DNA of 64,000 nucleotides from Candidatus Zambryskiibacteriota bacterium (GCA_048499675.1 JASNZL010000004.1:28463-92462), one strand, 5' to 3'. Numbered from the stretch's first letter, positions 9,303-59,046 are shown. Program-made: numbers and translations. Notes: a model not told the origin generated them from the sequence alone.

Positions 9303-9434
9303 AACCTCCTCCTTCTATATTTCCTATATATATTATACACCCAAAATGACAAACGCTGTAAAATTTTTTGTGAGAATTTTGTTGAAATTTTGTATCACTG
9401 GTATAATTATATTTATTAAAATTAATTTACAAAT

Positions 9435-9710
9435 ATGGGATTTGGACTTGAAAGATTACTTAATTTTGGCTCGAATAAAGATAGTGCTGACCAAGACAAG
9501 GATAAAAAAAATGCTGGTGGTAATTTTATTTCTATACCCGAAAATCCCAGTGACGGACTAGGGGATGATGAATATGCAAAGGAAGACATAAACCAACAAA
9601 AGAAAGAGTTAGAAAAAGGTATACAAGAGGAAGAAAATAGTTCTAACCCAGATATGGGTAGATTAGAACACCTTAGAAAGAAGCTTGATATTTTAAATGA
9701 GACCCAATAA
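9435..9710 (+). CDS. Hypothetical acidic protein
   Basis: 91 aa ORF with no homology recognised. Confidence 0.3.
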   Translation: MGFGLERLLNFGSNKDSADQDKDKKNAGGNFISIPENPSDGLGDDEYAKEDINQQKKELEKGIQEEENSSNPDMGRLEHLRKKLDILNETQ

Positions 9711-9772
9711 ATATGTTATAGATACTCAAAATAATTGACTTTTTTTGGGATTTTGATAATATATCCTTCTAT

Positions 9773-39977: not shown

Positions 39978-40838
39978 ATGAAAAATAATATAGAAATATG
40001 GACGGGGGAAATAGGGAGTTACAAACTGCTTGATAGTGGTGAAAGAGAGAAAATAGAAGAAATAGATGGTTTTAGAATTGTTAGACCTGAGCCGAGAGCT
40101 TGGTGGGGGAAAAGTGAAGCTAAGAGCTGGAATCTAGAAGCTAGAGAAAAACAAAAAAACGAATTTGAAACAGTAATTAATCTTGGAATAGGGGACATAA
40201 AAGCAAAAATAAAATACAAAAAAGGATCAAAACACATTGGCATCTTCCCCGAGCAGTTTCCACAATGGAAATGGGTTAAAGAACGAGTTACGAGGTACGA
40301 GGTACGAGGTACGAATAGAAAATTGAAAATTTTGAACCTATTCGGTTATACAGGTATTGCGAGTTTGGTTGCGGGAAGCGCGAGAGCTCTGGTCACTCAT
40401 GTTGACGCTTCAAAACAGAGTGTAGAGTGGGCAAAAGAAAATCAAAAATTATCAGGACTTGAAAACGCTCCCATTAGGTGGATCGTTGACGATGTCTTGA
40501 AATTTTTGAAAAGAGAACTAAGTCGGGGAGTTAAATACGACGCAATAATTATGGACCCCCCAAGTTACGGTAAAGGTCCAAAAGGAGAAGTTTGGAAGGT
40601 TGAGAGTAGTCTGACTCAACTACTTGATCTCTGCAAAAAACTCCTAAGCAATGACCCACAATTTATAATATTAAATATGTATTCAATAGAACTTTCTTCA
40701 ATATCCCTAAGAAATTTACTTGGTGATATTACAAAGGATTTGGGTGGGGAAATAATAAACGGCGAACTCACTCTAAAAGAAGAAGCGGGGGAGAGACTCC
40801 TTCCTTTATCCCTTTTTGCAATTTGGGATAAAAAATAG
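39978..40838 (+). CDS. Class I SAM-dependent RNA methyltransferase (RlmI/RlmK-like). It carries an in-frame copy of a dispersed repeat.
   Basis: The catalytic region AIIMDPPSYGKGPKGEVW and the SAM pocket GYTGIASLVAG are present. A triplicated gaggtac motif encoding RVTRYEVRGTNRK lies at 40282-40337. Confidence 0.7.
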   Translation: MKNNIEIWTGEIGSYKLLDSGEREKIEEIDGFRIVRPEPRAWWGKSEAKSWNLEAREKQKNEFETVINLGIGDIKAKIKYKKGSKHIGIFPEQFPQWKWVKERVTRYEVRGTNRKLKILNLFGYTGIASLVAGSARALVTHVDASKQSVEWAKENQKLSGLENAPIRWIVDDVLKFLKRELSRGVKYDAIIMDPPSYGKGPKGEVWKVESSLTQLLDLCKKLLSNDPQFIILNMYSIELSSISLRNLLGDITKDLGGEIINGELTLKEEAGERLLPLSLFAIWDKK

Positions 40839-44134: not shown

Positions 44135-45529
44135 ATGGAGAGAATATATATAAAAGACCTAAACAAAGAAATAGGCAAAGAAGTTGTTATCAAAGGATGG
44201 GTGGATGTTGTAAGAGACCAAGGCAAAATGGTATTTTTTGATTTTAGAGACATGACAGGCAAGGTACAAGGAGTTGTTCTTACCGGCAATCAAGAATTAA
44301 CAGACCTTGCAAAGACAATAAGGCCTGAATGGGTAGTTTCAATAAATGGAATAGTCAACAAAAGACCTACAAAAATGGTAAATGAAAAAGTTTTAAACGG
44401 AGATATAGAACTTGAAGTAAAAGAAATAGAAATTCTAAACAAAGCCGAAACACTACCTTTTGATATAACAGTAGATACAGGAAATATAGATGAAAATACA
44501 AGACTCAAATACAGATATCTAGATCTTAGAAGCGAGAGGATGCAAAAAAATATTCGCCTTAGAAGTGAATTTGTAAAAAGAGTAAGGGAGCATTTGTTCA
44601 AAAAAATGTTTACCGAAATTGAGACGCCACTTCTTACCGAATCCACACCAGAAGGTAGTAGAGACTTTGTGGTGCCAAGCAGATTAAACCCTGGAAAATT
44701 TTATGCACTTCCGCAATCACCACAACAATACAAGCAACTCCTAATGACAGCTGGATTTGAAAAATATTTTCAAATAGCGAGAGCAATCAGAGACGAGGAC
44801 TTGAGAGCGGACCGTGGATTTGAACACACTCAAGTCGACATTGAAATGTCTTTTGTAAATATGGAGGATGTAATGAACACTGTAGAAGAGATGATTACAG
44901 AAGTTGTAGAAAGTCTTGGATATACAATCAAACAAAAACCATTTCCAAGAATAAGTTATAAAGATGCTATGGAAAAATACGGTGCTGATAAATTTGATTT
45001 GAGAACTGAAGAGGAAAAAGAGAAAGGAATTTTGGCTTATGCTTGGGTAGTAAACTTTCCATTTTTTGAAAAGACAGACGATGGTAAATGGACATTTACA
45101 CATAACCCATTTTCAATGCCAATCCCTGAACACGTTGAGTGGCTCTTGGAAGGCAAAAACATTGAGAAAATACTTACAACCCAATACGACCTTGTTTGCA
45201 ACGGATACGAGTCAGGAGGTGGGTCTGTAAGAGCACATAAGCCCGAAATTCTTCGCGCAACGTACAAAGTTATGGAATATACCGATGAGCAAATAGAACA
45301 CAGTGTAGGGCATATGTTAGACGCATTCAAATACGGAACACCTCCACATGGCGGAATTGCTCTTGGAGTTGAGAGAAATATAATGAACCTGACAGGAGAA
45401 TCTTTTCTTCGTGAAGTTCAAACATTTCCAATGACAAGAGGAGGACAGACGGCAGTGATGAAAGCGCCGAGCGATTTAAGCGAGAAACAGTTGAAGGAGT
45501 TGGGGATAGAGGTGAAGAAAGGGAAGTAG
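44135..45529 (+). CDS. aspS: Aspartate--tRNA ligase, short bacterial-type without the GAD insertion domain
   Basis: N-terminal OB fold. Motif 2 is FQIARAIRDEDLRADRGFEHTQVDIEMSF (bacterial FRDEDLRADRQPEFTQID). QSPQQYKQLLM and the motif 3 region GGGSVRAH are present. The protein is 464 aa. Confidence 0.9.
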   Translation: MERIYIKDLNKEIGKEVVIKGWVDVVRDQGKMVFFDFRDMTGKVQGVVLTGNQELTDLAKTIRPEWVVSINGIVNKRPTKMVNEKVLNGDIELEVKEIEILNKAETLPFDITVDTGNIDENTRLKYRYLDLRSERMQKNIRLRSEFVKRVREHLFKKMFTEIETPLLTESTPEGSRDFVVPSRLNPGKFYALPQSPQQYKQLLMTAGFEKYFQIARAIRDEDLRADRGFEHTQVDIEMSFVNMEDVMNTVEEMITEVVESLGYTIKQKPFPRISYKDAMEKYGADKFDLRTEEEKEKGILAYAWVVNFPFFEKTDDGKWTFTHNPFSMPIPEHVEWLLEGKNIEKILTTQYDLVCNGYESGGGSVRAHKPEILRATYKVMEYTDEQIEHSVGHMLDAFKYGTPPHGGIALGVERNIMNLTGESFLREVQTFPMTRGGQTAVMKAPSDLSEKQLKELGIEVKKGK

Positions 45530-45716
45530 AATTATCCTAATTTACCTAATTTCTAATTATTCTAAAGAAATAAGAAAGAAATTTTAGAATTAAAACAAAT
45601 AATTGTAGTTTTTGACCCTCAGATTTTTAATTTTGGATTTGTTTCGGATTTAGAGCTTAGAATTTAGTATTTAATTGTAGGTTACTTTATAAACCTTCTA
45701 ACTTCCCAACCTCCTC

Positions 45717-45755
45717 ATTCGTGTCATTCGCGCTAATTCGCGTATTGGTGTCGTG
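45717..45755. repeat. Motif F copy (attcgtgtcattcgc...gtattggtgtcg) upstream of scpA
   Basis: A second copy at 63447-63535 carries a 50 bp GC-rich internal insertion. Confidence 0.55.
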
Positions 45756-45804
45756 TTATTGACTTTCAAACTTTTTAACTAATTTTTATGCTAAAATATC
45801 CTTA

Positions 45805-46599
45805 ATGTTTGAAGATTTTAAGGTAAAGACAGAAGATTTTGAAGGACCCTTAGAGGTTCTTTTGGAACTAATCGAAAAAAGGAAACTGCACATAAGCACA
45901 GTGTCGCTATCAAAAGTGGCAGACGATTTTATAGAATTTACTAATTCTTTAGAAGAGAAAGATGGGAATTATATATCCAATCTAAGCGATTTTATTTTGG
46001 TTGCCTCAACACTTTTACTCATAAAATCAAAATCACTTTTGCCAACACTTGATTTATCCGAGGAAGAAGAAGAGAACATAGACGACCTAGAAAAAAGACT
46101 CCTTGAATACAAAAAGTTTAAGGAACTTTCTTTGGAGATAAGCAAAATGTTTGGTAATTTTCTATATTTCCCCCAAGAAAGAAAGAAAATAAATGTTGTA
46201 TTTGCTCCAACAAAGGAGATAAATTTGATTACACTAAAAGAAGCCTTGCAAAATGCATTGAACAATATTCCAGTCAAAGAGACAAAGCTCGCAGAAATCA
46301 CAGTCAAAAAAATAGTGAGTTTGGAAGATATGATAGATAAATTATCCGAGCGAATTCAAACAAGCATGAAAACTAGTTTTAAGAACTTCGCTAAAGCTAC
46401 GACAGGAGAGAATGATTTCTCAAAAGTAGGCAAAGGTGGACTTTATGAAATCCCAAAAGAAGAAAGGATAAATGTAATTGTTAGTTTCCTTGCTATGCTA
46501 GAACTAGTAAAACAAGGTATTATAAGAGTAAACCAAGAAAGCGAGTTTGATGATATAGAGATGGAGAATGATAGGGCAGGGGTACCGACATATAGTTAG
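45805..46599 (+). CDS. scpA: Segregation and condensation protein A
   Basis: FEGPLEVLLELIEKRKLHISTVSLSKVADDF is the ScpA N-terminus. Confidence 0.85.
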   Translation: MFEDFKVKTEDFEGPLEVLLELIEKRKLHISTVSLSKVADDFIEFTNSLEEKDGNYISNLSDFILVASTLLLIKSKSLLPTLDLSEEEEENIDDLEKRLLEYKKFKELSLEISKMFGNFLYFPQERKKINVVFAPTKEINLITLKEALQNALNNIPVKETKLAEITVKKIVSLEDMIDKLSERIQTSMKTSFKNFAKATTGENDFSKVGKGGLYEIPKEERINVIVSFLAMLELVKQGIIRVNQESEFDDIEMENDRAGVPTYS

Positions 46600-46792
46600 A
46601 AAGTTCATAAAGGCGCAAGTTATAAAGTAACCCGCAATTAAATACGAAATCCTAAATCCGAAATTCTAAACAAATTCTAAATCCGAAATTATAAATTCAA
46701 AACTTATGAGTAATTAGTGACTAAAAGTTTAAAATTAAATCATTGAAAATTTATTGAAAATTCTAAATTGAAAATTAAAAATTTTAAAAACC
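46600..46792. repeat. Repeat block (motifs B and C) separating scpA from scpB
   Basis: aatacgaaatcctaaatccgaaattctaaa... and tcattgaaaatttattgaaaattctaaattgaaaatt are shared with 54655-54700 and 57640-57695. Confidence 0.65.
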
Positions 46793-47338
46793 ATGAATCT
46801 CGAGTCAAAAATTGAAGCAATACTTTTTTATAAGAACGAGCCATTAAAGATAAAAAAATTATCAGAGATTTTGGGTGAATCAGAAAGCGCGATAAAAGAT
46901 TCTATAAAAAACTTATCCTCTTCACTCGAAGGAAGAGGAATATGTGTTGTGCAAACAGACGATGAAGTCTCTCTCGTGGTCTCCCTAGCACACAAAGAAC
47001 TAATAGATAAAATATCCCTAGACGAGATGAGTAAAGACATAGGCAAAGCTGGACTTGAGACTCTAGCAATCGTCCTATACAAAGGACCAATATCAAGAAG
47101 AGAAGTTGACCACATAAGAGGAGTTAATTCTACTTTTATCCTCCGAAACCTAACAATAAGAGGTTTGGTAGAAAAGGCCGAAAATACCGAAAACCAACGA
47201 GTACCAAAATACAAAGCAAGTATAAACCTACTTTCGCACTTGGGTATAAGAAACATTGAGGAATTGCCTGAATTTGCTATTTTAAATAGTAAGGCAAGTG
47301 AGGTAATACAAGAAGCAGAAACAGCACAAGAAGAATAA
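46793..47338 (+). CDS. scpB: Segregation and condensation protein B
   Basis: IEAILFYKNEPLKIKKLSEIL and a tandem winged-helix profile are present. Confidence 0.85.
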   Translation: MNLESKIEAILFYKNEPLKIKKLSEILGESESAIKDSIKNLSSSLEGRGICVVQTDDEVSLVVSLAHKELIDKISLDEMSKDIGKAGLETLAIVLYKGPISRREVDHIRGVNSTFILRNLTIRGLVEKAENTENQRVPKYKASINLLSHLGIRNIEELPEFAILNSKASEVIQEAETAQEE

Positions 47339-47342
47339 ATTT

Positions 47343-48290
47343 ATGAACAAACTAAAAGAATTTTTTAATATAGAAAACAGAACCAAATACTTTTTTCACG
47401 TACTTGTTTTTCTCTCTGTTCTGTCTATAATTTTTTTCTACTTACTGCTAATTGGTGAGAGGGCGCTCTATCGAAATGAACAGGTTGTCACTGCCGAAAA
47501 AATAAACCCTTTTGATGAAATAAGCTTAGAAGCCAAGAGTGCTTTTGTGTGGGATGTTATAAATCAAAGAGAATTATTTTCCAAAAATAGCGATCTACCG
47601 CTACCTCTTGCTTCACTGACAAAAGTAATGACAGCAATCACTGCGGATATTTACTTACCAGAAAATGCAAAAATAATTATTATAGATGAATATTTAAAAC
47701 CAGAAGGAGACTCAGGTCTTCTTGTGGGTGATATTTGGGATGCAAAAGATTTGCGAGATTTTATGCTAATGACATCTTCAAATGACGGCGCATACGCACT
47801 TGCTTCTGTCGCCCAAGCAATAAAAAGAAACGAACTCGACCCCCAAGCAGAGTTTATAAAAAAAATGAATGAAATAGCTTTGGATATTGGGCTAACAAAT
47901 AGCAAGTATATAAATGAACACGGACTTGATGAAAGTTTGGACAGGGGAGGAGCTTATGGAACAGCACGAGATAGTGCAATTCTGTTTGAATACGCCCTAA
48001 CAAATCACGGAGATATAATGGAAGCAACGAGATACAAAAACTTGAATTTCCAAAGTGGAGCACAAGCGTATAATGCAATCAACACCAACGGCTCAATTGA
48101 CGAAATACCGGGTCTTATTGCCTCAAAAACGGGCTTTACTGACCTCGCAGGGGGTAATTTGGTAATAGCGTTTGATGCCGGCCTCGGAAGGCCTATTATA
48201 GTCTCTATCCTTGGTTCCAGCCGAGAAGGCAGGTTTGTAGATACAAAGAAGTTGGTAGATGCAACGCTACAATACCTTTGGGAAGAATAG
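47343..48290 (+). CDS. D-alanyl-D-alanine carboxypeptidase (peptidase S11, PBP5/6-like)
   Basis: PLASLTKVMTA (SxxK), SSND (SxN) and KTGFT (KTG) are present. There is an N-terminal TM anchor. Confidence 0.8.
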   Translation: MNKLKEFFNIENRTKYFFHVLVFLSVLSIIFFYLLLIGERALYRNEQVVTAEKINPFDEISLEAKSAFVWDVINQRELFSKNSDLPLPLASLTKVMTAITADIYLPENAKIIIIDEYLKPEGDSGLLVGDIWDAKDLRDFMLMTSSNDGAYALASVAQAIKRNELDPQAEFIKKMNEIALDIGLTNSKYINEHGLDESLDRGGAYGTARDSAILFEYALTNHGDIMEATRYKNLNFQSGAQAYNAINTNGSIDEIPGLIASKTGFTDLAGGNLVIAFDAGLGRPIIVSILGSSREGRFVDTKKLVDATLQYLWEE

Positions 48291-48527
48291 ATATAAGAGA
48301 TAAGATATAAGAGATATGAGGATGATGGTTTGAAAGTTTATAAAGTTGGAAAGTTCATAAAGTTACCCACTAATCCGCGAATGCACACTAATCATACGAA
48401 TAAAAACCGGAAATTTAAAGATTGAATAATTGAAAATTTAAACAATATTTAAAAATTAAAAATTACAAAATTAAAAATTGATTAGTAATTAGTTATTCAT
48501 AACTCGTACTTCGTTACTTCGTATATC
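48291..48527. repeat. Repeat block (motifs D, C, E and a reverse-complement copy of A) preceding direct repeat 1
   Basis: gttacccactaatccgcgaatgcacactaatcatacgaataaaa matches 55937-55985. cataactcgtacttcgttacttcgtat is the reverse complement of motif A. Confidence 0.65.
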
Positions 48528-48557
48528 ATGATCGACATCGTAAAAGTATTTTTGCCG
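48528..48557 (+). repeat. Direct repeat 1: exact 30 bp copy of the 5' end of mraY (atgatcgacatcgtaaaagtatttttgccg)
   Basis: It is identical to 54775-54804. The match extends to 34 bp with one mismatch (tat[c/t]atg...). It lies in the intergenic region upstream of the dikinase operon. Confidence 0.85.
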
Positions 48558-48633
48558 CTAATTTACAATTGGAATTTGGAATTTATTTAAAATAATTAGG
48601 ATAATTAGAATAATTGTATTTAAACTTCGTATC

Positions 48634-51015
48634 ATGATTTATACAAAACATTTTAAAGAATTAAATAAGAACGATGCTAATATTGCTGGGGGCAAGGGAG
48701 CATCATTGGGGGAGATGACTCAGTCCGGCATACCGGTGCCCGAGGGCTTTGTTGTCTTATCAACTACATTTGACCATTTCCTCAAAGAAACTGATCTTGT
48801 TCAAGAAATTGATGCGATTTTAAAAACTGTGGACCACAAAGCAATTCACACTGTAGATTCTGCTTCTGAAAAAATAAGGGGACTCATTGAAAGCAGAGAA
48901 GTGCCGGACGATATAGCAAAAGAAATAATGAGCGACTTTGAAAAGCTCGGTGCCGAATTTGTGGCGGTGAGATCATCGGCCACAGCCGAAGATGGTGCTG
49001 AACACGCTTGGGCAGGTCAGCTTGAAAGTTTTCTTAATACTGACAAAAATTCACTGTTGGACCATGTTCGCAAATGTTGGGGTTCACTATTCACTCCTCG
49101 CGCTATTTTTTACCGATTTGAAAAAGATTTGAGCGGGACAGAAATCTCTGTCGCTGTTGTTGTCCAAAAAATGATTCAATCTGAAGTTTCGGGTATTGCC
49201 TTCTCAGTTCACCCTATTACCGAAGACTACAATCAACTCATAATTGAAGCGGGGTATGGCTTGGGCGAAGCGATTGTCTCTGGCTCAATTACTCCTGACT
49301 CTTATGTGGTAGAAAAGGGGCCGTTGCAAATCATTGACCAAAATATTGCGGAGCAGAAGAAAGCTTTAGTAAAAGAAGGAGCGAGCAACAATTGGGTGAT
49401 GGTAGAAAAAGAAAAAAGAGAACAACAAAAGCTCTCGGGAAAAGAAATTACAGAGCTCTCAAAAATTATTATACAAATAGAAAAACATTATGGTTTCCCT
49501 TGTGACATAGAATGGGCTTTAGAGGGTGGCAAATTTTATATTGTCCAAAGTAGACCCATCACTACACTTGCTCCGAAAAAAGAATTAAAAACTTTAATAA
49601 ATACTGAAGACTATCATTTTTTTGGTCTATGGAAATGCAACCTTTTCTCTGATTGGTACTGGTCTAAATGGCTTGTTCCTGAATATGCTAAAAGAATTGG
49701 TCTCGATCTAAATGATAGCGGTATTTTTGTAATAAACGGAGGATATTTCTTCACAAAAAAATCTGTTATAGAAACAATCCGCGAGTACGCAAAAAATATT
49801 ATTGAGAGTAAGGATAAGGAAAAATTGGCTCTCCTTAGGAAACTAACAAATGAAATTTATGACACTTCTCTTGCTGTTTCAGAAAAAATAAGCGAGGCAG
49901 AGCCGAATGAAATAAATGTTAGAGAAATGGCTGAGTCGGGTCAGCAAATAATGTTTCCATGGTGTTTCGGGTATATTCTTTCTGAAGTTTTTGATGAATT
50001 TCTTATTCCTGCTGCAGACAAAGCTGGAATTAATAGAGAAGATATTTCTGCTCTTATTCCACCATTTAAAACTCCTCTTATTGAAGCCCAAGATAATTTA
50101 CGCTTAATAAAAAAAGTTTTGGAAGATAAGGGTCATTGGAATCTACTTCTTGAAGATTCCACCAAAGCTATTAATGAAATTCAGAAAGATGAGCAGGTGT
50201 CCAAATTGATTCAAGAGCATTCATTTAAATATGGATGGACTAATATTATGAACCTTGTAGGTGAGGACCCAAATATTGAGCAAGTTATTGATCAGATAAC
50301 CCACATTCCATCTCAACAAACTCATATCACAAACTCTGTAGCGGACGAAGATTTTGAATTTCTAATTCAATGTGCTTCAACCACCGCATATCTCCGTCAA
50401 ACTGGTGTTGAATATTTCTCTATATACTCACGATACGCACAAAAACTTTTAGGATTAGCAGCAAATAAAATTGGTATTACTTACCGAGAACTTCTTGATC
50501 TCAATCTCAACGAAATTATTGATGGAGTTAATGGAAAAGATGTTAAAGAAATTGTAAAAAGACGAGCAAATGATAACTGGGCTATCTATTCAATGCTTAA
50601 CAACGAAGAGCCAGTTGTGTTTGATGACCCTGAAGTAATAAAACAGCTTGTTTCTGTAATGGTGCCAAAAGCCGAGGCTTCAGAAGATGGAACTATCAAG
50701 GGACAGATTGGTAATAAAGGATCAGGGAAAGGAAAAGTAAAAATTATTCTTTCTCTGGATGATTTTCACAAAATGGAACCTGGAGCCGTATTGGTTACTA
50801 CAATGACTACGCCAGATTACGTTCCGTTAATGCAAAAAGCTTCTGCAATTATTACTGATATTGGAGGTTTGCTTTGTCATGCGGCAATCATTTCCCGCGA
50901 GTTAAATATTCCTTGTGTGATTGGTACAAAATTTGCAACTCAACTCCTAAAAGATGATATGGAAGTGGAAGTGGATGCGGATAATGGAGTAGTTAAGATA
51001 TTAGCTAAAAATTAA
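48634..51015 (+). CDS. PEP synthase / rifampin-phosphotransferase-like dikinase (PPDK_N ATP-binding domain, central domain, and C-terminal phosphohistidine swivel domain), with no PEP-utilizers TIM-barrel
   Basis: The N-terminus NDANIAGGKGASLGEM...VAVRSSATAEDG is PPDK_N. The C-terminus AVLVTTMTTPDYVPLMQKASAIITDIGGLLCHAAIISRELNIPCVIGT is the swivel domain with the His. Confidence 0.75.
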   Translation: MIYTKHFKELNKNDANIAGGKGASLGEMTQSGIPVPEGFVVLSTTFDHFLKETDLVQEIDAILKTVDHKAIHTVDSASEKIRGLIESREVPDDIAKEIMSDFEKLGAEFVAVRSSATAEDGAEHAWAGQLESFLNTDKNSLLDHVRKCWGSLFTPRAIFYRFEKDLSGTEISVAVVVQKMIQSEVSGIAFSVHPITEDYNQLIIEAGYGLGEAIVSGSITPDSYVVEKGPLQIIDQNIAEQKKALVKEGASNNWVMVEKEKREQQKLSGKEITELSKIIIQIEKHYGFPCDIEWALEGGKFYIVQSRPITTLAPKKELKTLINTEDYHFFGLWKCNLFSDWYWSKWLVPEYAKRIGLDLNDSGIFVINGGYFFTKKSVIETIREYAKNIIESKDKEKLALLRKLTNEIYDTSLAVSEKISEAEPNEINVREMAESGQQIMFPWCFGYILSEVFDEFLIPAADKAGINREDISALIPPFKTPLIEAQDNLRLIKKVLEDKGHWNLLLEDSTKAINEIQKDEQVSKLIQEHSFKYGWTNIMNLVGEDPNIEQVIDQITHIPSQQTHITNSVADEDFEFLIQCASTTAYLRQTGVEYFSIYSRYAQKLLGLAANKIGITYRELLDLNLNEIIDGVNGKDVKEIVKRRANDNWAIYSMLNNEEPVVFDDPEVIKQLVSVMVPKAEASEDGTIKGQIGNKGSGKGKVKIILSLDDFHKMEPGAVLVTTMTTPDYVPLMQKASAIITDIGGLLCHAAIISRELNIPCVIGTKFATQLLKDDMEVEVDADNGVVKILAKN

Positions 51016-51017
51016 TT

Positions 51018-51815
51018 ATGGAAGGGTTAAATCAGGAAAATCAAGAGAGTAGAGAAAACGGTAAAAATGTTCATATTAAAACCCAATTTCTTAGACACGG
51101 AGAAAAAAGCTCATTTTATGGGGATTTGAGTGAAAAAGGAATTGAAGATGCTAAAAAGTATGGGAGAGAATTTCCGTCTTCAGAGGGTGGTGTAAAAGGA
51201 TTTCATAGTCATATAAAAAGGTCAAAAGATACATTAGAAAATATTATCCAGGAAGTAGAATCAGAGAAGAAATATAAATCCAGACCACGTAATGAACTGC
51301 TACTTAACGACCCAGGTGAAATATCTTGGTCGGAAGAATCAATAAAAAAATACAGAGAACTAACAGAAAGCCATAAAGGCGATGAGAATGCTGCTTTAGA
51401 CTGGTATTTATCTTATGGCGATAAAAGGCCTGATCAAGATACTATCTCGCCGAAAGAAGCGGCTACGAGAATAGCTCGCTTAATTGAGAAGTATACGCGC
51501 ATGGTTGCTCGCCTAAAAAGCAATTCATCTGTTGATTTTATACACGTATCACATTCTGGAACAATGGAACCATTCCTTCAACAAATTATAGGTGATGAAA
51601 TTGAAGAAAACCCCATAAACCCAGCTGGAAAAACTTTTCTTGAAAAACTTGGTGGAGTAATAAATTTTTTGGAAGGATTCCAGATTGATGTAAAAAGTGA
51701 TGAAAATGATAATATTATGGCCGAACTTACTTTTAGAGGGCGTAAATTCTCCATAGACCTAAAAAAATTGGAGGAAATAACATTCTACGATCGGGATGTT
51801 AATAATGATGAATGA
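51018..51815 (+). CDS. Histidine-phosphatase superfamily protein (PGM/SixA branch)
   Basis: FLRHGEKS is the RHG catalytic motif and VSHSGT is the second His. It overlaps the next gene by 4 nt (ATGA). Confidence 0.55.
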   Translation: MEGLNQENQESRENGKNVHIKTQFLRHGEKSSFYGDLSEKGIEDAKKYGREFPSSEGGVKGFHSHIKRSKDTLENIIQEVESEKKYKSRPRNELLLNDPGEISWSEESIKKYRELTESHKGDENAALDWYLSYGDKRPDQDTISPKEAATRIARLIEKYTRMVARLKSNSSVDFIHVSHSGTMEPFLQQIIGDEIEENPINPAGKTFLEKLGGVINFLEGFQIDVKSDENDNIMAELTFRGRKFSIDLKKLEEITFYDRDVNNDE

Positions 51816-52945
51816 CTATGAAAATTGAGGATATCAAAAAAGAAAATTGGCAGTATCTGGCAAGTAGAGAAATCCCAATTCTGTTTGGTTCATTGGTCAC
51901 TCAAAGTTATAAAGAAACTTTTCCCAAAACCGGAATAATTGGGATAGAGGCGGCACTAGGAACCGATATTATTAATTGTGGAAAATATTTAGTCTTTAGG
52001 TCATACAGAAAAGTATCTGCCCTCAATAAATCTACAGAATTTTTTGTAAAAACTTTTAAACACAATCCAGAAAGAGTTGATAATATCTTTAAATTAGCAG
52101 CGGCGGCAACGGATAGTGCAAATCATAATATTTCTAAATTATCCAAAATATCAGATTATTTAACAAAAAAAGACTTAAAGAGTTTTTACTTCTTATTTAG
52201 AGAAGCTTTCATATCATTTTTCCCATTGCAAGTATTTCCATTCTCGTTAGAGCAAGTATTAAATGGGGCAGGAGAAGTAGATTTAGTGAATCAATACAAG
52301 GATATTTTGGTTAAATGGAGAAGTGAAGTGCATGATACCGAAATAAAACTAGAAGATTTCTTGGGAATATTTTTAAATAAAGCAAAAGAACTCTTAAATA
52401 TAGATTTTAGATACTGGTCCGATAAAGAAGTGTTAGATTATTTCAATACTTCTGCTGTTGTCCCCGATACCACAATCAAAAACAGGAAAGAATACTCTGT
52501 GCTTGTTTTTGATACCAATTTGACACCTCCTTACCAAGTTATTGATGGTACAGATGCAGAAGAAATTTGTACTTTTATGGACGAACCAGTTAAAGAAAAA
52601 GTATTTGGAACAGAATTTAAAGGAAGGCCTGTATATCCCGGCCATGTTAAAGCAAACGTTTTTTTAATAAATAAAAAAGAAGATTTTAAAAATATCCCTG
52701 AAGAATCTGTAGTGGTCGCCCGCGTTATTGAAATGGACGATATCAGATGGATTAAATTAAAAAAAATTGCAGCAGCCATAACGGAGGAAGGTGGGCTTAC
52801 AACTCATATAGCAATTATGGGACGTGAACTTAAAATACCGACGATAGTAGGAGTTAAGGGTATCGTTGAATCAGTAAGAACAAATGATACATTGGATGTG
52901 GATTCTGAAAATGGGCTAATTAAAATTATCAATAAATTACAATAA
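51812..52945 (+). CDS. PEP-utilizing-enzyme swivel (phosphohistidine) domain protein with an uncharacterised N-terminal domain. Paralog of the C-terminal part of 48634-51015.
   Basis: The C-terminus SVVVARVIEMDDIRWIKLKKIAAAITEEGGLTTHIAIMGRELKIPTIVGV is a swivel domain. There is no ATP-binding domain. Confidence 0.6.
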   Translation: MTMKIEDIKKENWQYLASREIPILFGSLVTQSYKETFPKTGIIGIEAALGTDIINCGKYLVFRSYRKVSALNKSTEFFVKTFKHNPERVDNIFKLAAAATDSANHNISKLSKISDYLTKKDLKSFYFLFREAFISFFPLQVFPFSLEQVLNGAGEVDLVNQYKDILVKWRSEVHDTEIKLEDFLGIFLNKAKELLNIDFRYWSDKEVLDYFNTSAVVPDTTIKNRKEYSVLVFDTNLTPPYQVIDGTDAEEICTFMDEPVKEKVFGTEFKGRPVYPGHVKANVFLINKKEDFKNIPEESVVVARVIEMDDIRWIKLKKIAAAITEEGGLTTHIAIMGRELKIPTIVGVKGIVESVRTNDTLDVDSENGLIKIINKLQ

Positions 52946-52954
52946 TTTAAAATC

Positions 52955-53962
52955 ATGCAAACATATAAACAAGTTTATACAAGAGAAGTTTGTTTAATCG
53001 CCCTTGAAATTTGGGAGGAGCATCAGTTGCACCTTCTTAAAGAAGTTTTCGGAGATGTGCCACCACTTTCAATTTTTGACGTCTATGGAGGTGTAGGTAA
53101 AGTTTATTACCAAGAGGACACACAGGATATATGGTCCAATATTATCGCTAACAAAGCTAATAAAGATTTATCTTTTGTGCCTGAGCAGATGGAATTACTT
53201 GGCAAGAATGTAGATAGGCTTGAAAAAATTTGGCACCAAAAGAAGCTTTCTTCCAGAGAAGAAGTCGTCGATTTGTTTTCACTAGCCGCTTGGACTTGGG
53301 TTGGTGTTTCCGTCTCATATTTCCTGCCAGACATAAAAGATGTATCTCAAAAAGACCAGGATTTGGGCATGGCTTTACGAAATCGCACCTTAGACTTCCT
53401 TGAATTCACCGACCATGTTTTACAGGACACACTTAAAGATCTTTACCCTAATCTTGGCGATTTGGTCAAATATATATCAATTGATGAATTGAAGAGAAAT
53501 GAGATCCCAAATGAAGAAGTTTTGAAAGAAAGAGAGAAACATTACATTTATTACGATTTTAAGATTCACACTAACATAAGCATAGCTGAATTTTTGAAGG
53601 ATAATAATATTGAAATTAAAGAAGATGCTATTCCAGAAAATCTAAAAGAAATAAAAGGGCAAACCGCTATGGGCGGTAAAGTCACGGGTCCTGTTAGGAT
53701 TCTGCATAAAAAATCAGAGATTCCAGAATTACTAGATGGTGAAGTTTTGGTTGCTACAATGACTACTCCCGACTATCTACCGGCCATGAATAAAGCCATA
53801 GCCTTTGTAACTGACGAAGGAGGTGTAACTTGTCATGCTGCTATCGTGGCTAGAGAAATTGGTAAACCTTGTGTTATAGGAACAAAAATAGCAACAAAAG
53901 CACTCAAAACCGGTGATATAATAGAAATTGACGCTGATGCCGGTCTTATCAAAATTTTGTAG
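52955..53962 (+). CDS. PEP-utilizing-enzyme swivel (phosphohistidine) domain protein with an uncharacterised N-terminal domain. Second paralog.
   Basis: The C-terminus EVLVATMTTPDYLPAMNKAIAFVTDEGGVTCHAAIVAREIGKPCVIGT is a swivel domain. Confidence 0.6.
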   Translation: MQTYKQVYTREVCLIALEIWEEHQLHLLKEVFGDVPPLSIFDVYGGVGKVYYQEDTQDIWSNIIANKANKDLSFVPEQMELLGKNVDRLEKIWHQKKLSSREEVVDLFSLAAWTWVGVSVSYFLPDIKDVSQKDQDLGMALRNRTLDFLEFTDHVLQDTLKDLYPNLGDLVKYISIDELKRNEIPNEEVLKEREKHYIYYDFKIHTNISIAEFLKDNNIEIKEDAIPENLKEIKGQTAMGGKVTGPVRILHKKSEIPELLDGEVLVATMTTPDYLPAMNKAIAFVTDEGGVTCHAAIVAREIGKPCVIGTKIATKALKTGDIIEIDADAGLIKIL

Positions 53963-54183
53963 ACAAAAGACCGCTCCGAAGAGCAGTCTGTTTCTCACCT
54001 CCTTTCTGGTGAATTAAGCCTCTTGATTTACGACCGTGGCTTAGTTTGGGTCGGTTCTTTTTCATTGTCCTTGTTGTTGGGTTGCTCTGTCCGCGTTTGC
54101 GAAACAGGTTTTTGTTGGGGCCGATCCTTACGGATAACCCCCACAAATCGCAAGCCACCACGCGATCCGAATCCGGCCATGTT

Positions 54184-54381
54184 CTACCCCTTTCTTTTCT
54201 GTTCTGCTTGTCTCACCACTTCCTCGAGCGAGATGTCATTCGGAGTCCCTCCGGAAATCGAAACGAGGAATACGATGAAAATAGCAGCACCGACCCCCCA
54301 GTGGATGAAATAGCTAGCAGCCAAACAGGCAACAACCATCATCAGAGAAACGAGAAGGATAGATTTGTCTTTGGGTGTCAT
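54184..54381 (-). CDS. Small two-TM membrane protein in a GC-rich segment
   Basis: The 65 aa reads SILLVSLMMVVACLAASYFIHWGVGAAIFIVFLVSISGG. The overlapping + strand ORFs look non-protein-like. There is no clear RBS. Confidence 0.25.
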   Translation of the reverse strand: MTPKDKSILLVSLMMVVACLAASYFIHWGVGAAIFIVFLVSISGGTPNDISLEEVVRQAEQKRKG

Positions 54382-54419
54382 ATCTAAATACTATTATACA
54401 CAAAACTACCATTCTGTCA

Positions 54420-54774
54420 ATAGTAAAAAATTAATAAATTTATATAGTTTATCTCTGAAATTTAGGGTATTATGAGAGATACGGGTTCAAAAAACGAGAT
54501 ACGAAGTACGAGATAAGATAAAATTCTAAATACGAAACAAATTATAAATTCAAAATACAAATGTTCAAAAATAGATAATTTAACATGGAATTTGTGTTTT
54601 AAATAATAAGATTGGTAAACATTAGTAATTAATGAGTTAGAATTAAAAATTAAATCATTGAAAATTTATTGAAAATTCTAAATTGGAAATTGAAAATTTA
54701 TTAGCGAAATTAGCGTGCATTAGTGGATTGGTGGGTAGTGATTTTACACTTTGATATTTAAATTTTAAATTATT
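54420..54774. repeat. Repeat block (A, B, C, E, and D in reverse complement) preceding mraY
   Basis: aaacgagatacgaagtacgagataag, attctaaatacgaaacaaattataaattcaaaatacaaatgttcaaaa and the attgaaaatttattgaaaattctaaattggaaattgaaaattt motifs are present. Confidence 0.65.
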
Positions 54775-54804
54775 ATGATCGACATCGTAAAAGTATTTTT
54801 GCCG
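54775..54804 (+). repeat. Direct repeat 2: the first 30 nt of the mraY CDS, identical to 48528-48557
   Basis: Exact 30/30 match with copy 1. Confidence 0.85.
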
Positions 54805-55836
54805 GCAGTAGGGGCGTTTGCGCTCGGTGTTTTGATTACACCATTTCTCACAAACTTTTTATACAAACATAAATGCTGGAAAAAGAAGTCTGGCAAAACC
54901 GCACTAGATGGCAACGAAGCAAAAATATTTAATGAACTTCACAAAGAAAAAGAAGTAAACACTCCAAGAATGGGGGGCATTGTCATTTGGGCAAGCGCTT
55001 TTATTGTAATCGCTCTGGTCTGGATTATTTCTAACGTTTTCCCAACAGAGATAACTACCAAGCTTGATTTCCTATCAAGAAACCAAACGTGGATTCCTCT
55101 TGCGACACTTCTTTTTGGTTCAATTGTAGGACTAGTAGATGACTATTTGGAAGTCAGGGGACTTGAAAAAGGAGGACTTTCGCTCAAAAAAAGATTAGTT
55201 GCCGTAAGCTTGGTTACTCTTTCGGTTGCGTTTTGGTTTTACTTCAAACTTGATATAGACAGTATTGGGCTTCCATTTAAAGAAGAAGGTTTTTATTTGG
55301 GACCACTCTTTATAATTTTATTTTTGCTTACAGCACTATTTATTTACGCAGGAGGAGTAATAGATGGGATAGACGGTCTCGCTGGTGGAGTCTTTGCCAC
55401 AATGTTTGCTGCCTATGCTGGAATCGCATTTTATCAACAACAAATAGACCTCGCAGCTTTTTCGGCTACAGTCTCTGGTGGAATTTTGGCTTTTCTTTGG
55501 TTCAACATACCTCCGGCCAGATTTTATATGTCAGAAACTGGCTCAATGGGACTTACAATCACTCTTACAGTAGTAGCTTTTATGACAGACTCGCTTGGTA
55601 AGGGTTATGGATTTTTGGTCCTACCAATTATTGCTCTCCCACTTGTCATAACAGTTCTATCAAACATAATTCAAGTCTTATCAAAAAAAATAAGAGGCAA
55701 AAAAGTTTTTTTGGTGGCACCACTTCATCACCATTTTGAGGCAATTGGCTGGCCAGCATATAAAGTTACAATGAGATACTGGGTGTTCTCGACCATTTGT
55801 GCAATACTCGGCATATCGCTAGCACTTATTGGATAA
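54775..55836 (+). CDS. mraY: Phospho-N-acetylmuramoyl-pentapeptide transferase
   Basis: NTPRMGG and the GLVDDY (DD) motif are present, with a ten-TM profile. Confidence 0.9.
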   Translation: MIDIVKVFLPAVGAFALGVLITPFLTNFLYKHKCWKKKSGKTALDGNEAKIFNELHKEKEVNTPRMGGIVIWASAFIVIALVWIISNVFPTEITTKLDFLSRNQTWIPLATLLFGSIVGLVDDYLEVRGLEKGGLSLKKRLVAVSLVTLSVAFWFYFKLDIDSIGLPFKEEGFYLGPLFIILFLLTALFIYAGGVIDGIDGLAGGVFATMFAAYAGIAFYQQQIDLAAFSATVSGGILAFLWFNIPPARFYMSETGSMGLTITLTVVAFMTDSLGKGYGFLVLPIIALPLVITVLSNIIQVLSKKIRGKKVFLVAPLHHHFEAIGWPAYKVTMRYWVFSTICAILGISLALIG

Positions 55837-55860
55837 CGCGACACAAATAAACGATTATGG

Positions 55861-56030
55861 AAACGAGTTACGAAGTACGAGATACGAGTAACGATATATT
55901 TGAAATTAAAAATTGAAAGATTGAAAATTAAAATAAAAAACAAAAGTAACCCACCAATCACACGAATTTACACGAATCATAACGAATAAATATTAGTAAG
56001 ATTAGTATGCATTAGTAATTGGTGTGTTGT
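55861..56030. repeat. Repeat block (A, C, D, E) between mraY and ftsW
   Basis: aaacgagttacgaagtacgagatacgagtaacgat and gtaacccaccaatcacacgaatttacacgaatcataacgaataaa are present. Confidence 0.65.
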
Positions 56031-56044
56031 GGTAGAATAATAAA

Positions 56045-57151
56045 ATGAAAAAAACTGGAAAAATAAGTAGGCCTTTTTTGTTTTGGACAATTGTACTTGT
56101 TGTTTTTGGTTTTTTTATTTTTAGTTCAGCATCACTTGGAGTACTTGCAAGAAACGAAATAAAATTTGCAAACGTCGCCTTTAATCAAATATTTTTTGGA
56201 CTTTTTTTGGGCTCAATTGCTTGTATAATCTTTGCTCGCATTGATTACAAAATTTGGAAAAAATATGCATTTTATATTTTTATTGGCTCAATTGTTTTAA
56301 CCTTACTGGTATTTATTGACGCCCTAAGTCTCACACACGGCGGAGCAAGACGCTGGATAAATTTGAAATTTATATCTTTCCAACCATCTGAATTTTTAAA
56401 GATTGGATTTATTGCATATTTTTCTGCTTGGCTTAGTAGCATAAAAACAAAAGTAGAAACAATAAAATGGGGACTTTTTCCTTTCCTTTTATTTATGGGA
56501 ATTGTTGGTGGGATTCTGCTTGCTCAACCCGATACGGACACATTTGCTGTGATTATTTTTGCGTCCCTTGCAATATATATATCGGCTGGGGCTAGATGGA
56601 AACATATAGCGTCTATTGTTTTAATTGGTATTGCAATTATTACAATTTTGGCATTCACGAGACCTTATATTATGCAGAGAATACAAACAATGATTGATCC
56701 AAGCGCCAATGTTCAAACTACTGGATATCAATTGAGACAATCTCTTATTGCTGTTGGCTCTGGACAGATGTGGGGTAGGGGATTTGGTCAAAGTATTCAA
56801 AAATTTGAATATTTACCAGAGCCAATTGGTGATTCAGTTTTTGCTGTAGCAGCTGAGGAATTTGGTTTTGTGGGAGCAGTCACACTTATGTTCGTATTCG
56901 TAATGTTTGCACTTGAGGGAATAAAGATTGCAAACAGAGCACCTGATGATTTTGGGAAATATTTAACGCTCGGAATTATTGTAATGATAGTGTCGCAGGC
57001 TTTTTTGAATATCGGAGGTATGATAGGTGTTTTGCCACTAACGGGTATACCTCTGCCTTTTATAAGTCACGGTGGGACCGCTTTGTTTATAACCCTTATT
57101 GAAGTAGGTGTTATAATGAATGTGTCTAGGTCTGGAGGCACAAGAGGATAG
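56045..57151 (+). CDS. ftsW: SEDS-family peptidoglycan polymerase (FtsW/RodA)
   Basis: Ten TM helices. The conserved C-terminus PLTGIPLPFISHGGTALF is present. It lies between mraY and murG. Confidence 0.85.
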   Translation: MKKTGKISRPFLFWTIVLVVFGFFIFSSASLGVLARNEIKFANVAFNQIFFGLFLGSIACIIFARIDYKIWKKYAFYIFIGSIVLTLLVFIDALSLTHGGARRWINLKFISFQPSEFLKIGFIAYFSAWLSSIKTKVETIKWGLFPFLLFMGIVGGILLAQPDTDTFAVIIFASLAIYISAGARWKHIASIVLIGIAIITILAFTRPYIMQRIQTMIDPSANVQTTGYQLRQSLIAVGSGQMWGRGFGQSIQKFEYLPEPIGDSVFAVAAEEFGFVGAVTLMFVFVMFALEGIKIANRAPDDFGKYLTLGIIVMIVSQAFLNIGGMIGVLPLTGIPLPFISHGGTALFITLIEVGVIMNVSRSGGTRG

Positions 57152-57202
57152 CAGAATTTCCAATTTTCAATTTAAAATTTTCAATAAATTTTTAATTTAA
57201 AA

Positions 57203-57577
57203 ATGACTCAAACGGAGAAAAAATACGACTTGGAAGAAAGAACAGCTGTTTTTGGAGAATCAATTATAAAACTTTGTAGAAGTATAAAACAAGATAATAT
57301 AACTGCTCCAATAATAAACCAGCTCATCCGCTCTGGTACGAGCATCGGGGCAAATTATATGGAAGCAAATGGTGCAAGTTCAAAAAGGGATTTTGTAAAT
57401 AAGATTTTTATTTGTAAAAAAGAATCTCAAGAAACCAAACATTGGCTCCGTATGCTTTCTCTGAGTGTTACAGAGAACATTAAAGATGAATTAGAAAAAA
57501 TATCAAAAGAATGTCAGGAACTCGTGTTTATATTTCAGAAAATTGCTAGCACATCAAGAAACAATGAAAAAATATAG
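57203..57577 (+). CDS. Four-helix-bundle protein (TIGR02436, the family found in 23S rRNA intervening sequences)
   Basis: IGANYMEANGASSKRDF...ICKKESQETKHWLRML is the hallmark pattern of this family. It is inserted between ftsW and murG. Confidence 0.7.
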   Translation: MTQTEKKYDLEERTAVFGESIIKLCRSIKQDNITAPIINQLIRSGTSIGANYMEANGASSKRDFVNKIFICKKESQETKHWLRMLSLSVTENIKDELEKISKECQELVFIFQKIASTSRNNEKI

Positions 57578-57695
57578 CGAAAGAAGTTTTACAGGAATGT
57601 TATTAATTATGTTAAAATTTGGGTAATTAATTGAAAATTGAAACATTGTAAATTTAATGAAAATTCTAAATTATAAATTGAAAATTTAAAATAAT

Positions 57696-58835
57696 ATGAA
57701 AATTGTATTTACGGGTGGAGGAAGTGGGGGACACTTTTATCCAATAATAGCCATTGCAGAATCCATAAAAAAAATATCTAAAGAAAAGAAATTTCTATCA
57801 CCAGAGATGTATTTTTTTGGTCCAACCCCATATAACCCCGGACTTCTTTTTGATCATGGAATTATTTATAAAAAAGTTACAGCCGGAAAATTAAGGAGAT
57901 ACTTCTCGATAAAAAATTTTTTTGATTTATTTAAAACCGCTTGGGGCACTCTAAAAGCACTATTTGATATTTTTGGAATTTATCCAGACGTTGTTTTTAG
58001 CAAAGGGGGTTATGGTAGTTTCCCCGTTGTCCTTGCGGCAAGAATTTTAAGAATCCCAGTTTTTGTACATGAATCTGACTCAGCTCCAGGTAGAGCCAAT
58101 AAGTGGGCAGGAAAATTCGCAACAAGAATTGCTCTTTCTTACCGAGAAGCTTCTGAATATTTTAAAAGAAAAGATGCAATCGCTTATACCGGACAACCAA
58201 TAATAGAAGAAAAATTAACTCCAATTACAAACGGCGCCTTTGAATTTTTTAATTTTGATGAAAGCATCCCTGTAATATTTATTATCGGAGGTTCACAAGG
58301 AGCAAACATAATCAATAATATTATTCTTGACTCACTTCCTTTGCTCATAAAGGAGTATCAAATTATTCACCAAACAGGTGCGGGTAATATAGATGTAATC
58401 AAAGAATCTGCTGATGCCATTTTGCTCGATAACCCAAACAGAAAAAGATATAAAGCGTTTGGATATATGAATAATCTTGAAATGAGGATGGCCTCTGGTG
58501 CCTGTAGTCTTGTGATAAGTAGAGGTGGCTCTACTATATTTGAAATTGCATCATGGCACAAACCATCGATCATTATCCCGATTACAGAATCAAACGAAAA
58601 CCACCAAGTAAAAAATGCTTTTGCATATGCAAGGAGTGGCGCCTGCTCTGTTATCCAAGAAGAAAATTTAAAAGTAAATATAATTCTTTCTGAAATAAGA
58701 AGAATTTTGGAGAACGAAGAACTAAAAAACAAAATGACCCTTGGAGCAGAAAACTTTTTTAAAGTCGGTGCATCAGATGAGATAGCAAAAGAAATACTAA
58801 AAATTGCTCTGTCTCACGAAGGATTGGAAGAGTAA
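57696..58835 (+). CDS. murG: Undecaprenyldiphospho-muramoylpentapeptide beta-N-acetylglucosaminyltransferase
   Basis: MKIVFTGGGSGGHFYP and the C-terminal GT-B UDP-GlcNAc-binding domain are present. Confidence 0.9.
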   Translation: MKIVFTGGGSGGHFYPIIAIAESIKKISKEKKFLSPEMYFFGPTPYNPGLLFDHGIIYKKVTAGKLRRYFSIKNFFDLFKTAWGTLKALFDIFGIYPDVVFSKGGYGSFPVVLAARILRIPVFVHESDSAPGRANKWAGKFATRIALSYREASEYFKRKDAIAYTGQPIIEEKLTPITNGAFEFFNFDESIPVIFIIGGSQGANIINNIILDSLPLLIKEYQIIHQTGAGNIDVIKESADAILLDNPNRKRYKAFGYMNNLEMRMASGACSLVISRGGSTIFEIASWHKPSIIIPITESNENHQVKNAFAYARSGACSVIQEENLKVNIILSEIRRILENEELKNKMTLGAENFFKVGASDEIAKEILKIALSHEGLEE

Positions 58836-58879
58836 GAAAAAAGCTTAGAGGTTTTAGGTATAAGGTATAAGGGGTGCCG

Positions 58880-59030
58880 AAACTCTAAACAATAAAAACA
58901 TAAAAAAATTCAAATCTCAAAATTTTTTTAATTTTTAATTTTTAATTTAGAATTTTAAATAAATTTTCAATGGATTTAATTTAAAATTTAATCCTTACTC
59001 GTAACTCGTGTTTCGTAACTCGTCTCTTTT
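58880..59030. repeat. Repeat block (motif C plus a reverse-complement motif A) upstream of gltX
   Basis: ccttactcgtaactcgtgtttcgtaactcgtctc is the reverse complement of motif A. It is followed by TGTGCTATAAT, an extended -10, at about 59027-59038. Confidence 0.55.
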
Positions 59031-59046
59031 GTGCTATAATGAATAA

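Follow-up and report, generated by a model that had tools for sequence, protein, structure and literature searches.

A recently inserted dikinase cassette between dacA and mraY of an uncultured Patescibacteria genome, flanked by a short duplication of the mraY start

Some genomic islands occupy the 5' end of a conserved housekeeping gene, as the SXT/R391 elements do in prfC. Similarly, the dusA-associated integrative genomic islands use tyrosine integrases that target the 5' end of dusA; no feature other than the integrase is universal among them, and their excised circles are detectable (PMC4482086). Recombination with truncated homology also leaves duplications of the target flanking an insert (PMC3240628). 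Here we analyzed a stretch of 64,000 nucleotides (nt) from Candidatus Zambryskiibacteriota bacterium (GCA_048499675.1 JASNZL010000004.1:28463-92462), which we refer to as the window. It is chromosomal DNA of an uncultured member of the Patescibacteria (Paceibacteria/Parcubacteria), within the Candidate Phyla Radiation (CPR), and it carries a cassette of dikinase genes between dacA and mraY. The first 30 nt of mraY are duplicated on the far side of this cassette, and an initial annotation had proposed the whole as a candidate inserted island, with site-specific integration at an att site as a possible source. We found that the att-site reading is only partly supported. The insertion is real; integration at an att site is not supported, in view of the failure to find a recombinase, the native composition of the cargo, a relative (L163) that holds the same kind of cassette without the duplication, and repeats that do not fall on the boundaries of the insertion.

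Like the dusA islands, the segment is inserted at the 5' end of a conserved housekeeping gene, has a repeat made of that end, leaves its target intact and belongs with variable cargo. Unlike them, it has no integrase that we could find, its repeats lie off the boundaries of the insertion/deletion (indel), and the host's own upstream region stands beside the intact copy. Since the defining integrase was not found and the boundaries failed to match, we do not class the segment with the dusA/SXT-type islands.

Two other systems offer a closer comparison. The products of homology-facilitated illegitimate recombination, or of a single crossover with truncated homology, resemble our segment in having one homologous and one non-homologous joint (or one of short homology), a flanking duplication of the target and no dedicated recombinase (PMC3240628). 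However, the duplications documented there are of 109-950 bp and arose in E. coli conjugation, whereas the duplication in the window is of 30-34 nt and its history is read from sequence. The microcin H47 (MccH47) island of E. coli is likewise described as small, without a site-specific recombinase of its own, and provided with short direct repeats able to recombine (PMC3191183, PMC5426353). Its mobility is reported to have been shown experimentally, while our segment is known from sequence alone, and the two are unrelated in cargo and host. By analogy, the segment appears closer to recombinase-less islets with short repeats and to the products of homology-facilitated illegitimate recombination.

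Empty sites in relatives and cassettes at other loci

MraY scans of species-representative genomes and metagenome contigs yielded 160 loci. We found dacA directly upstream of mraY in 145 of these, with a median gap of 36 nt and a largest gap of 850 nt, and none of the 145 adjacent pairs had dikinase genes in the gap. Two relatives were reached through the 90%-identity cluster of the window MraY. L171 (ENA ERZ16299706) encodes an MraY that is 95% identical and has a dacA-mraY gap of 215 nt; L172 (JGI Ga0643540_0003995) encodes one that is 96% identical and has a gap of 151 nt. Each has one mraY head, and the DNA of both is about 85% identical to the window and collinear with it on both sides. 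These empty sites indicate a gain of the cassette after the lineages split or, with less parsimony, two losses. The insertion of the segment into the gene order scpA-scpB-dacA-mraY-ftsW-murG is genuine, recent and lineage-specific. The initial annotation had described the segment as an interruption of this conventional order and had proposed that relatives be checked for dacA next to mraY with a single copy of the 30-mer; both the 145 adjacent pairs and the two empty sites agree with it.

A homologous and larger cassette does occur between dacA and mraY in L163 (GCA_964455485.1). Its dikinase is 72% identical to that of the window and is accompanied by five swivel-only genes and a phosphatase. 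We found no duplicate of L163's own mraY start around this cassette. A relative with the same genes in the same spacer and no flanking duplication had been named in the initial annotation as evidence that would refute an island with att sites, and L163 is such a relative.

In a neighbor-joining tree built from six flanking genes the window grouped with L003 in 77 of 100 bootstraps and with L163 in none (0/100), and the site is empty in 8 of the 10 genomes of the window's clade. We therefore rejected a single ancestral insertion common to the window and L163; a history of two gains in this spacer is more parsimonious than a single gain with four or five losses. The spacer is permissive elsewhere as well. 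In L010 it holds two small open reading frames (ORFs) at 5355-5978 that resemble, by eye, a HicB/HicA toxin-antitoxin pair, and in L003, the window's sister in the tree, about 650 nt (9335-10000) without a convincing ORF.

Homologous cassettes were also found away from this spacer. The closest dikinase (83% identical) is that of L162, where it lies beside ArdC-N-like and phage-family genes. In L164 the cassette is upstream of a helicase-like gene, recognized by eye from a 28-residue N-terminal fragment; in L165, L166 and L029 it comes after the M23 peptidase, where the same gene cluster ends on its downstream side; and in L168 the dikinase stands alone at another locus. The variety of these loci indicates that the cassette moves.

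The mraY duplication and the boundaries of the insertion

The sequence ATGATCGACATCGTAAAAGTATTTTTGCCG occurs at both 48528-48557 and 54775-54804, the latter being mraY nt 1-30, and the two copies are identical at 30 of 30 positions. When 4 upstream nt are added (TATC on the left, TATT on the right) the repeat is 34 nt long with one mismatch, exactly as the initial annotation had described it. No other copy is present on either strand of the window with up to 3 mismatches, and 100 dinucleotide-preserving shuffles gave 0 chance copies at the same tolerance. The right copy is the genuine mraY start, since the M(I)IDIVKVFLP that it encodes is kept in relatives. The left copy diverges into unrelated sequence past codon 10, so that its ORF is of 20 codons only (48528-48590), and it lies 76 nt upstream of the start of the dikinase operon. 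Among 162 loci a second mraY head was found in the window alone, even when up to 6 mismatches were allowed. At mraY nt 6 and 12 both copies have a synonymous C where L171 and L172 have A. We also considered whether the 30-mer is part of a wider dispersed family, a possibility raised with the original description; it is not, as the window has only two copies and the 161 other loci have none.

Two Logan contigs from SRR21762701, another public assembly, are both 100% identical to the window. L169 spans 46756-48392. L170 (6299 nt) runs unbroken from 48377 to 54675 and contains the left copy with both flanks plus the whole cassette into the right spacer; it is linear, and its ends do not overlap. 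Since L170 contains the left copy with its flanks, the left junction is not peculiar to one assembly.

Collinear homology with L171 breaks off at 48268, the last ~22 nt of dacA having diverged from both L171 and L172, and restarts at 54719. Next to the right copy on its upstream side, 43 nt (54731-54773) occur once only and match the region that precedes mraY in the L171 empty site at 93% identity. In contrast, the 58 nt upstream of the left copy have no match in the fetched loci other than L170, which is the window's own duplicate. The left copy thus lies ~220-255 nt within a non-orthologous spacer, while the orthologous 43-56 nt adjoin the right copy, that is, inside the supposed element, and the repeats and the indel boundaries do not coincide. 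Integration into mraY nt 1-30 would put the host's upstream region beside the left copy, and the opposite is observed. Because sequence orthologous to L171 stands beside the right copy and none stands beside the left, the right copy and its promoter-proximal region are resident and the left copy is an ectopic duplicate. The resident region (54719-54774) holds a promoter-like site, TTTACA-17-TAAATT, with a predicted transcript start near the mraY start codon; upstream of the left copy promoter prediction gave nothing consensus-like.

Searches for the machinery of a mobile element were negative. Pfam showed no domain of an integrase, transposase or resolvase in the four cargo proteins, in a 65-amino-acid (aa) ORF of the GC-rich tail that follows them, or in the six frames of 53940-54480. 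Nor was a recombinase domain found in 39 other window ORFs, a scan that covered neither the large ORFs 14361-17588, 17595-21251 and 39978-40838 nor the non-tail spacers. The earlier remark that no integrase is present therefore holds for the ORFs scanned. No transposase was found, as would be expected of a transposon or insertion sequence; inverted modules of ~42 nt at 48362-48405 and 54697-54740 are ~74% alike (by eye, not computed), and part of the second is also in the L171 empty site (by eye). A duplication of 30-34 nt far exceeds the usual target-site duplications. A plasmid or phage origin was rejected as well: blastn of the tail against plasmids gave nothing, PADLOC gave 0 hits and PHROGs only a generic 'kinase' family. 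Viral contigs contain distant relatives only, 32-50% identical and most over much shorter stretches.

The composition of the cargo is that of its surroundings. Its tetranucleotide distance is 0.0119, in the middle of the distribution around a window mean of 0.0123, and the G+C content at its third codon positions is 0.25-0.31, against 0.25-0.32 in the flanks. A comparison with the flanks had been proposed as a check on the island, and it gave no sign of atypical DNA in the cargo: the four cargo genes have native composition, and the 438-nt GC-rich tail is the only outlier.

Identity among the window, L171 and L172 ranges from 58% to 99% per 100 nt, and the nearest relative varies from gene to gene. 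This swinging identity and shifting relationship indicate frequent homologous exchange among these lineages. Gene by gene, the window shares 93% identity in scpA with L172 and 83% with L171; in the middle of dacA these values are 85-89% for L172 and 58-73% for L171; in scpB, L171 and L172 are 97% identical to each other and the window is 79% identical to both; and over mraY nt 1-200 the window is 97% identical to L171. The promoter-proximal region together with mraY nt 1-236 is 95% identical to L171, as compared with 85% for the remainder of mraY. Only 5 window-private substitutions fall in mraY nt 1-236 and 85 in nt 237-1062, and window-private differences are abundant in the backbone on both outer sides, in the 3' end of dacA and in mraY past ~nt 237. 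On this comparison what adjoins the cassette on its right is not an arm specific to an element but the 5' haplotype of an ordinary chromosomal mraY.

Origin of the duplication

We favor, at a probability of roughly 40%, the explanation that the dacA-mraY spacer recently received a dikinase cassette which lacks a recombinase and is of a type native to Paceibacteria, and that the 30/34-nt repeat is a recombination scar and not an attL/attR pair. Such a scar would most likely come from a homology-anchored joint combined with an illegitimate one, or from template switching. We infer the donor and the type of joint as follows. The incoming DNA would have been a chromosomal fragment of a related bacterium on which the cassette was already joined to the promoter-proximal region and 5' end of mraY. 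Its right end would have entered by homologous recombination inside mraY, and its left end would have formed an illegitimate joint past nt 30 of the recipient mraY. This would be homology-facilitated illegitimate recombination or, equivalently, a Campbell-type event with truncated homology, and it would leave a dead 30-nt mraY head, the cassette, a normal mraY upstream region and an intact mraY. The insert does carry, beside the intact copy, added sequence homologous to the natural flank of the target (54719-54774 plus mraY nt 1-236, compared with L171), and a cassette directly upstream of mraY exists in L163, a more distant genome. Once in place, the repeats could mediate precise loss of the cassette. 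Recombination had been mentioned as an alternative to an integrase from the start, and it is closer to the data.

Several points weigh against this explanation. We found no close donor, in which a cassette would stand beside an L171-type mraY upstream region. The left spacer has no recognizable mraY promoter, which would be expected if it were the recipient's original upstream region. The C's at nt 6 and 12 of both copies mean that the heads of donor and recipient were identical or were later homogenized. Patches at least 96% identical between the window and L171 make up ~18% of 200-nt windows; since such patches are common, the L171-like patch is suggestive of co-import with the cassette but is not proof of it. 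Finally, an insertion in situ combined with a short templated copy is about as parsimonious.

In that last explanation, the main rival and in our view possible though rather unlikely, the cassette entered on the upstream side of the resident mraY promoter region. The 34-nt left copy would then be a patch, either separate or formed at the junction, templated from the nearby mraY start by template switching, by filler synthesis in the course of repair or by gene conversion over a short tract. This explanation accounts for the orthology of the right copy and its 56 upstream nt to the empty site, for the absence of a predicted promoter upstream of the left copy, and for a left spacer that is a mosaic of 30-80-nt modules recurring in other spacers in both orientations. 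A recent intragenomic copy would also be expected to show what the left copy shows, 100% identity to its source with the window-specific synonymous variants in common. However, neither the direct orientation of the left copy nor its exact place between dacA and the cassette is predicted, no microhomology is visible at its ends apart from TAT, and the other dispersed modules are AT-rich spacer sequence, none of which includes coding sequence. The 30-34-nt repeat would be read differently if it were the attL/attR core of an islet that targets and restores the mraY 5' end, with its integrase lost or acting in trans. A direct repeat of the 5' end of an essential gene that remains intact is the classic footprint of such integration (as in the dusA islands, PMC4482086), close relatives have empty sites, cassettes occupy the same spacer in two lineages that never group as sisters, and cassettes at other loci show movement. 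Nevertheless we consider true site-specific integration unlikely. Our searches gave neither a recombinase gene nor a remnant of one, L163 lacks a flanking repeat and no other locus has a second head, the empty-site orthology lies beside 'attR' and not 'attL', the reverse of what is predicted, and the composition is native with no close viral or plasmid relatives found; beyond the repeat itself the att-site explanation has no positive support. The finding makes a weaker case for an att-site island than was first apparent. Doubtful to a slightly greater degree is a proposal that keeps the targeting without the integrase: the dacA-mraY junction, with its 30-nt mraY core, would be a recurrent, targeted landing site for an integrase-less dikinase cassette in Paceibacteria, mobilized by a trans-acting recombinase or by competence-linked recombination. 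If this were true, the two gains in the window and L163 would reflect targeting, not chance.

The left copy might also have been kept because it functions, for example as a 5' regulatory or translation-initiation element common to both, or as a leader peptide, linking the dikinase operon to mraY expression. The perfect conservation of 30 nt, the short distance to the operon and the 20-codon ORF are in keeping with such a role. We think it very improbable, as the left copy is unique to the window genome and missing from L163 and all other cassette-bearing loci, no promoter precedes it, and its perfect identity is equally expected from recency. Least probable of all is a chimeric join, for which one could cite the metagenome-type assembly and a 30-nt repeat that equals k-1 for k = 31. 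An assembler-specific artefact is unlikely to be the source of the left copy, given that L170 agrees with the window at every position across the left copy, its flanks, the cassette and the right spacer and that L169 overlaps it from dacA, although their read set and that of the window's assembly may not be independent.

Cargo, spacers and gene neighborhood

The coordinates of the features are collected in the table below.

Table. Features of the dacA-mraY region, and related cassettes at other loci. Positions are those of the window unless a locus is named.
Feature	Coordinates	Strand	Basis or remark
asnS/aspS-type synthetase	44135-45529		
scpA	45805-46599		
scpB	46793-47338		
dacA, S11 D-Ala-D-Ala carboxypeptidase, left flanking gene	47343-48290	+	Pfam PF00768
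Left spacer, AT-rich mosaic of dispersed 'word' modules	48291-48523	.	
Left copy, TATC + mraY nt 1-30	48524-48557	+	ectopic
Spacer upstream of dikinase operon, promoter-like sites	48558-48633	+	
Dikinase, 793 aa: PPDK_N ATP-grasp + C-terminal phosphohistidine swivel	48634-51015	+	Pfam
Histidine-phosphatase superfamily protein, 265 aa	51018-51815	+	PF00300 (His_Phos_1), E = 1.8e-6
Swivel-only protein (C-terminal swivel), 377 aa	51812-52945	+	histidine kept
Swivel-only protein (C-terminal swivel), 335 aa	52955-53962	+	
GC-rich tail, discrete minus-strand unit	53968-54420	-	
Distal right spacer of dispersed modules	54421-54718	.	
Resident mraY-proximal upstream region	54719-54774	+	orthologous to L171 empty-site upstream
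Right copy, authentic mraY start	54771-54804	+	Pfam, TIGR00445, conserved N-terminus
mraY coding sequence	54775-55836	+	Pfam Glycos_transf_4 + TIGR00445 mraY
ftsW	56045-57151		
Four-helix-bundle protein ('23S rRNA intervening sequence'), 124 aa, between ftsW and murG	57203-57577		
murG, gltX, M23 peptidase	downstream of 124-aa protein gene		
GC-rich convergent units	window 53963-54420; L162 7975-8199; L163 18829-19389; L164 5586-6161	- (window)	
Recurring cassettes	window 48634-53962; L163 10001-19389; L164 820-6161; L165 10001-15048; L029 16047-20588; L162 4582-7949		

The gene content given for this segment at the outset, a dikinase/swivel operon followed by a GC-rich tail and repeat-rich spacers, was confirmed. 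By its domains the cargo belongs to the dikinase superfamily of phosphoenolpyruvate (PEP) synthase and rifampin phosphotransferase, and it reaches no curated subfamily cut-off. Like PEP synthase, rifampin phosphotransferase and the PigC-RedH dikinases it combines an ATP-grasp domain (PPDK_N) with a phosphohistidine swivel; unlike them it fails the NCBIfam cut-offs, every match being far below the curated values, and it is accompanied by 1-5 swivel-only paralogues and a phosphatase. The 793-aa dikinase has no PEP/pyruvate-binding domain. Its matches in the PDB include 8a8e and 5fbs, and no solved structure was matched by sequence to its middle ~380 residues. The swivel of the 335-aa protein is 52% identical to that of the dikinase and retains the CHAAI motif. 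A canonical PEP synthase/PPDK with three domains (PPDK_N, swivel, PEP-utilizers_C) is encoded elsewhere in the window, at 3361-5763 on the minus strand, as is a pyruvate kinase at 298-1317. Since a housekeeping PEP synthase/PPDK is present, the cassette dikinase is an extra paralogue.

The same combination recurs in Paceibacteria. Each cassette has one dikinase of ~790-800 aa (PPDK_N plus swivel, without a PEP-binding domain), a phosphatase of the His_Phos_1 or LMWPc type, and 1-5 swivel-only proteins, in which the C-terminal swivel domain follows unrelated N-terminal parts. The cassettes lie at varied loci, often within or beside the cell-wall/division gene cluster. The single ATP-grasp domain may phosphorylate the swivel-only proteins in trans. 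We know of no described function for this arrangement of a dikinase, swivel-only paralogues and a phosphatase. One more contig, L161 (GCA_023382555.1, JAHDVY010000383.1), is 1884 nt long, equals window 49428-51311 at 100% identity and is binned as Ignavibacteriaceae. It is almost certainly a mis-binned Patescibacteria contig.

The GC-rich tail includes the highest-GC 438-nt stretch of the window (53963-54400, 0.477 as compared with 0.342 for the window). It starts with a promoter, TTGACA-16-TATAAT at 54420-54393, that matches the consensus at 12 of 12 positions. An ATG 11 nt past this promoter opens the 65-aa ORF (54381-54184), which has two hydrophobic segments and ends at an in-frame TAG that is followed by 50 further sense codons. 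A terminator hairpin at 53989-53968 ends the unit and also closes the converging swivel gene. Among 5.8 billion proteins the 65-aa ORF had no homologue but itself, and it had no match in Pfam, PADLOC or PHROGs. The initial annotation had suggested that integrase remnants be sought here; six-frame Pfam searches of 53940-54480 at E <=10 returned nothing relevant, and we reject that origin in view of the promoter-ORF-terminator unit found instead. A non-coding RNA in the tail or the spacers was likewise rejected. Rfam gave no match in the window at its gathering thresholds and none for 53800-54900 at E <=1, no transfer RNA or transfer-messenger RNA was found, and the fold z-score of -2.4 is unremarkable.

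In the AT-rich genomes of the window, L162, L163 and L164, each cassette ends in a convergent unit that is strikingly GC-rich (48-60% as compared with 34-39% for the locus); in the last three this convergent gene has 52-60% GC in loci of 37-39%. The unit is a His_Phos_1 gene in L163 and L164 and the orphan membrane-like ORF in the window. We rejected the tail as a decayed copy of the His_Phos gene of L163 and L164, as tblastn, blastn and tblastx gave no similarity. The tail likewise showed no resemblance in sequence to the convergent gene of L162.

The spacers around the insertion are made of short recurring modules. Directly past the dacA stop, 48291-48318 is a 14-nt tandem duplication, ATATAAGAGATAAG/ATATAAGAGATATG. 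The same 13-mer encodes the DacA C-terminus (YIRDN followed by the stop) in L171 and L172, and thus the 3' end of dacA differs in the window. The empty-site spacers of L171 and L172 contain nothing that corresponds to the left spacer. Further in, the dispersed module at 48569-48600 shares ~91% identity with 1610-1641 and with an L172 spacer. On the other side of the cassette, 54492-54570 is ~87% identical to 1335-1434 and 54621-54699 is 89% identical to 46706-46784.

Throughout the region from scpA to gltX (45530-59046) the spacers are of 118-354 nt and consist of AT-rich 'word' modules that recur in both orientations, among them ACGAGTTACGAAGTACGAG, TTGAAAATTTATTGAAAATTCTAAATTG and ATTAGT/CACGAAT arrays. 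We counted as module-rich the spacers 45530-45804, 46600-46792, 48291-48633, 54421-54774, 55837-56044, 57578-57695 and 58836-59046, and also 1318-1728. In distant relatives such as L001 the spacers are of a few to ~20 nt, as estimated from the ends of tblastn hits, and L171 and L172 carry a GC-rich hairpin repeat of ~60 nt in these spacers instead. The spacers turn over much faster than the genes diverge.

The gene for the 124-aa four-helix-bundle protein is a second window-specific insertion within the same gene cluster. It had no tblastn match in the 172 related loci searched, and the ftsW-murG gap of L172, at 26 nt, has no space for it. The only mobile-element-like item among the ORFs scanned lies elsewhere, at 24602-25150: a 182-aa protein with HTH_38 and HTH_32 domains and no catalytic domain. 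We take this pair of domains to be typical of the N-terminus of an IS30-type transposase, and the protein is possibly a domesticated or truncated remnant.

The insertion between dacA and mraY documents the recent gain of a cassette inside an otherwise rigid cell-division and cell-wall gene order, with empty-site relatives and a scar at the junction. It suggests that these small CPR genomes apparently gain genes when related lineages recombine, and not by way of classical mobile elements. Of more interest still may be the cargo: a dikinase, swivel-only paralogues and a phosphatase that recur together at different loci, often near cell-wall genes.

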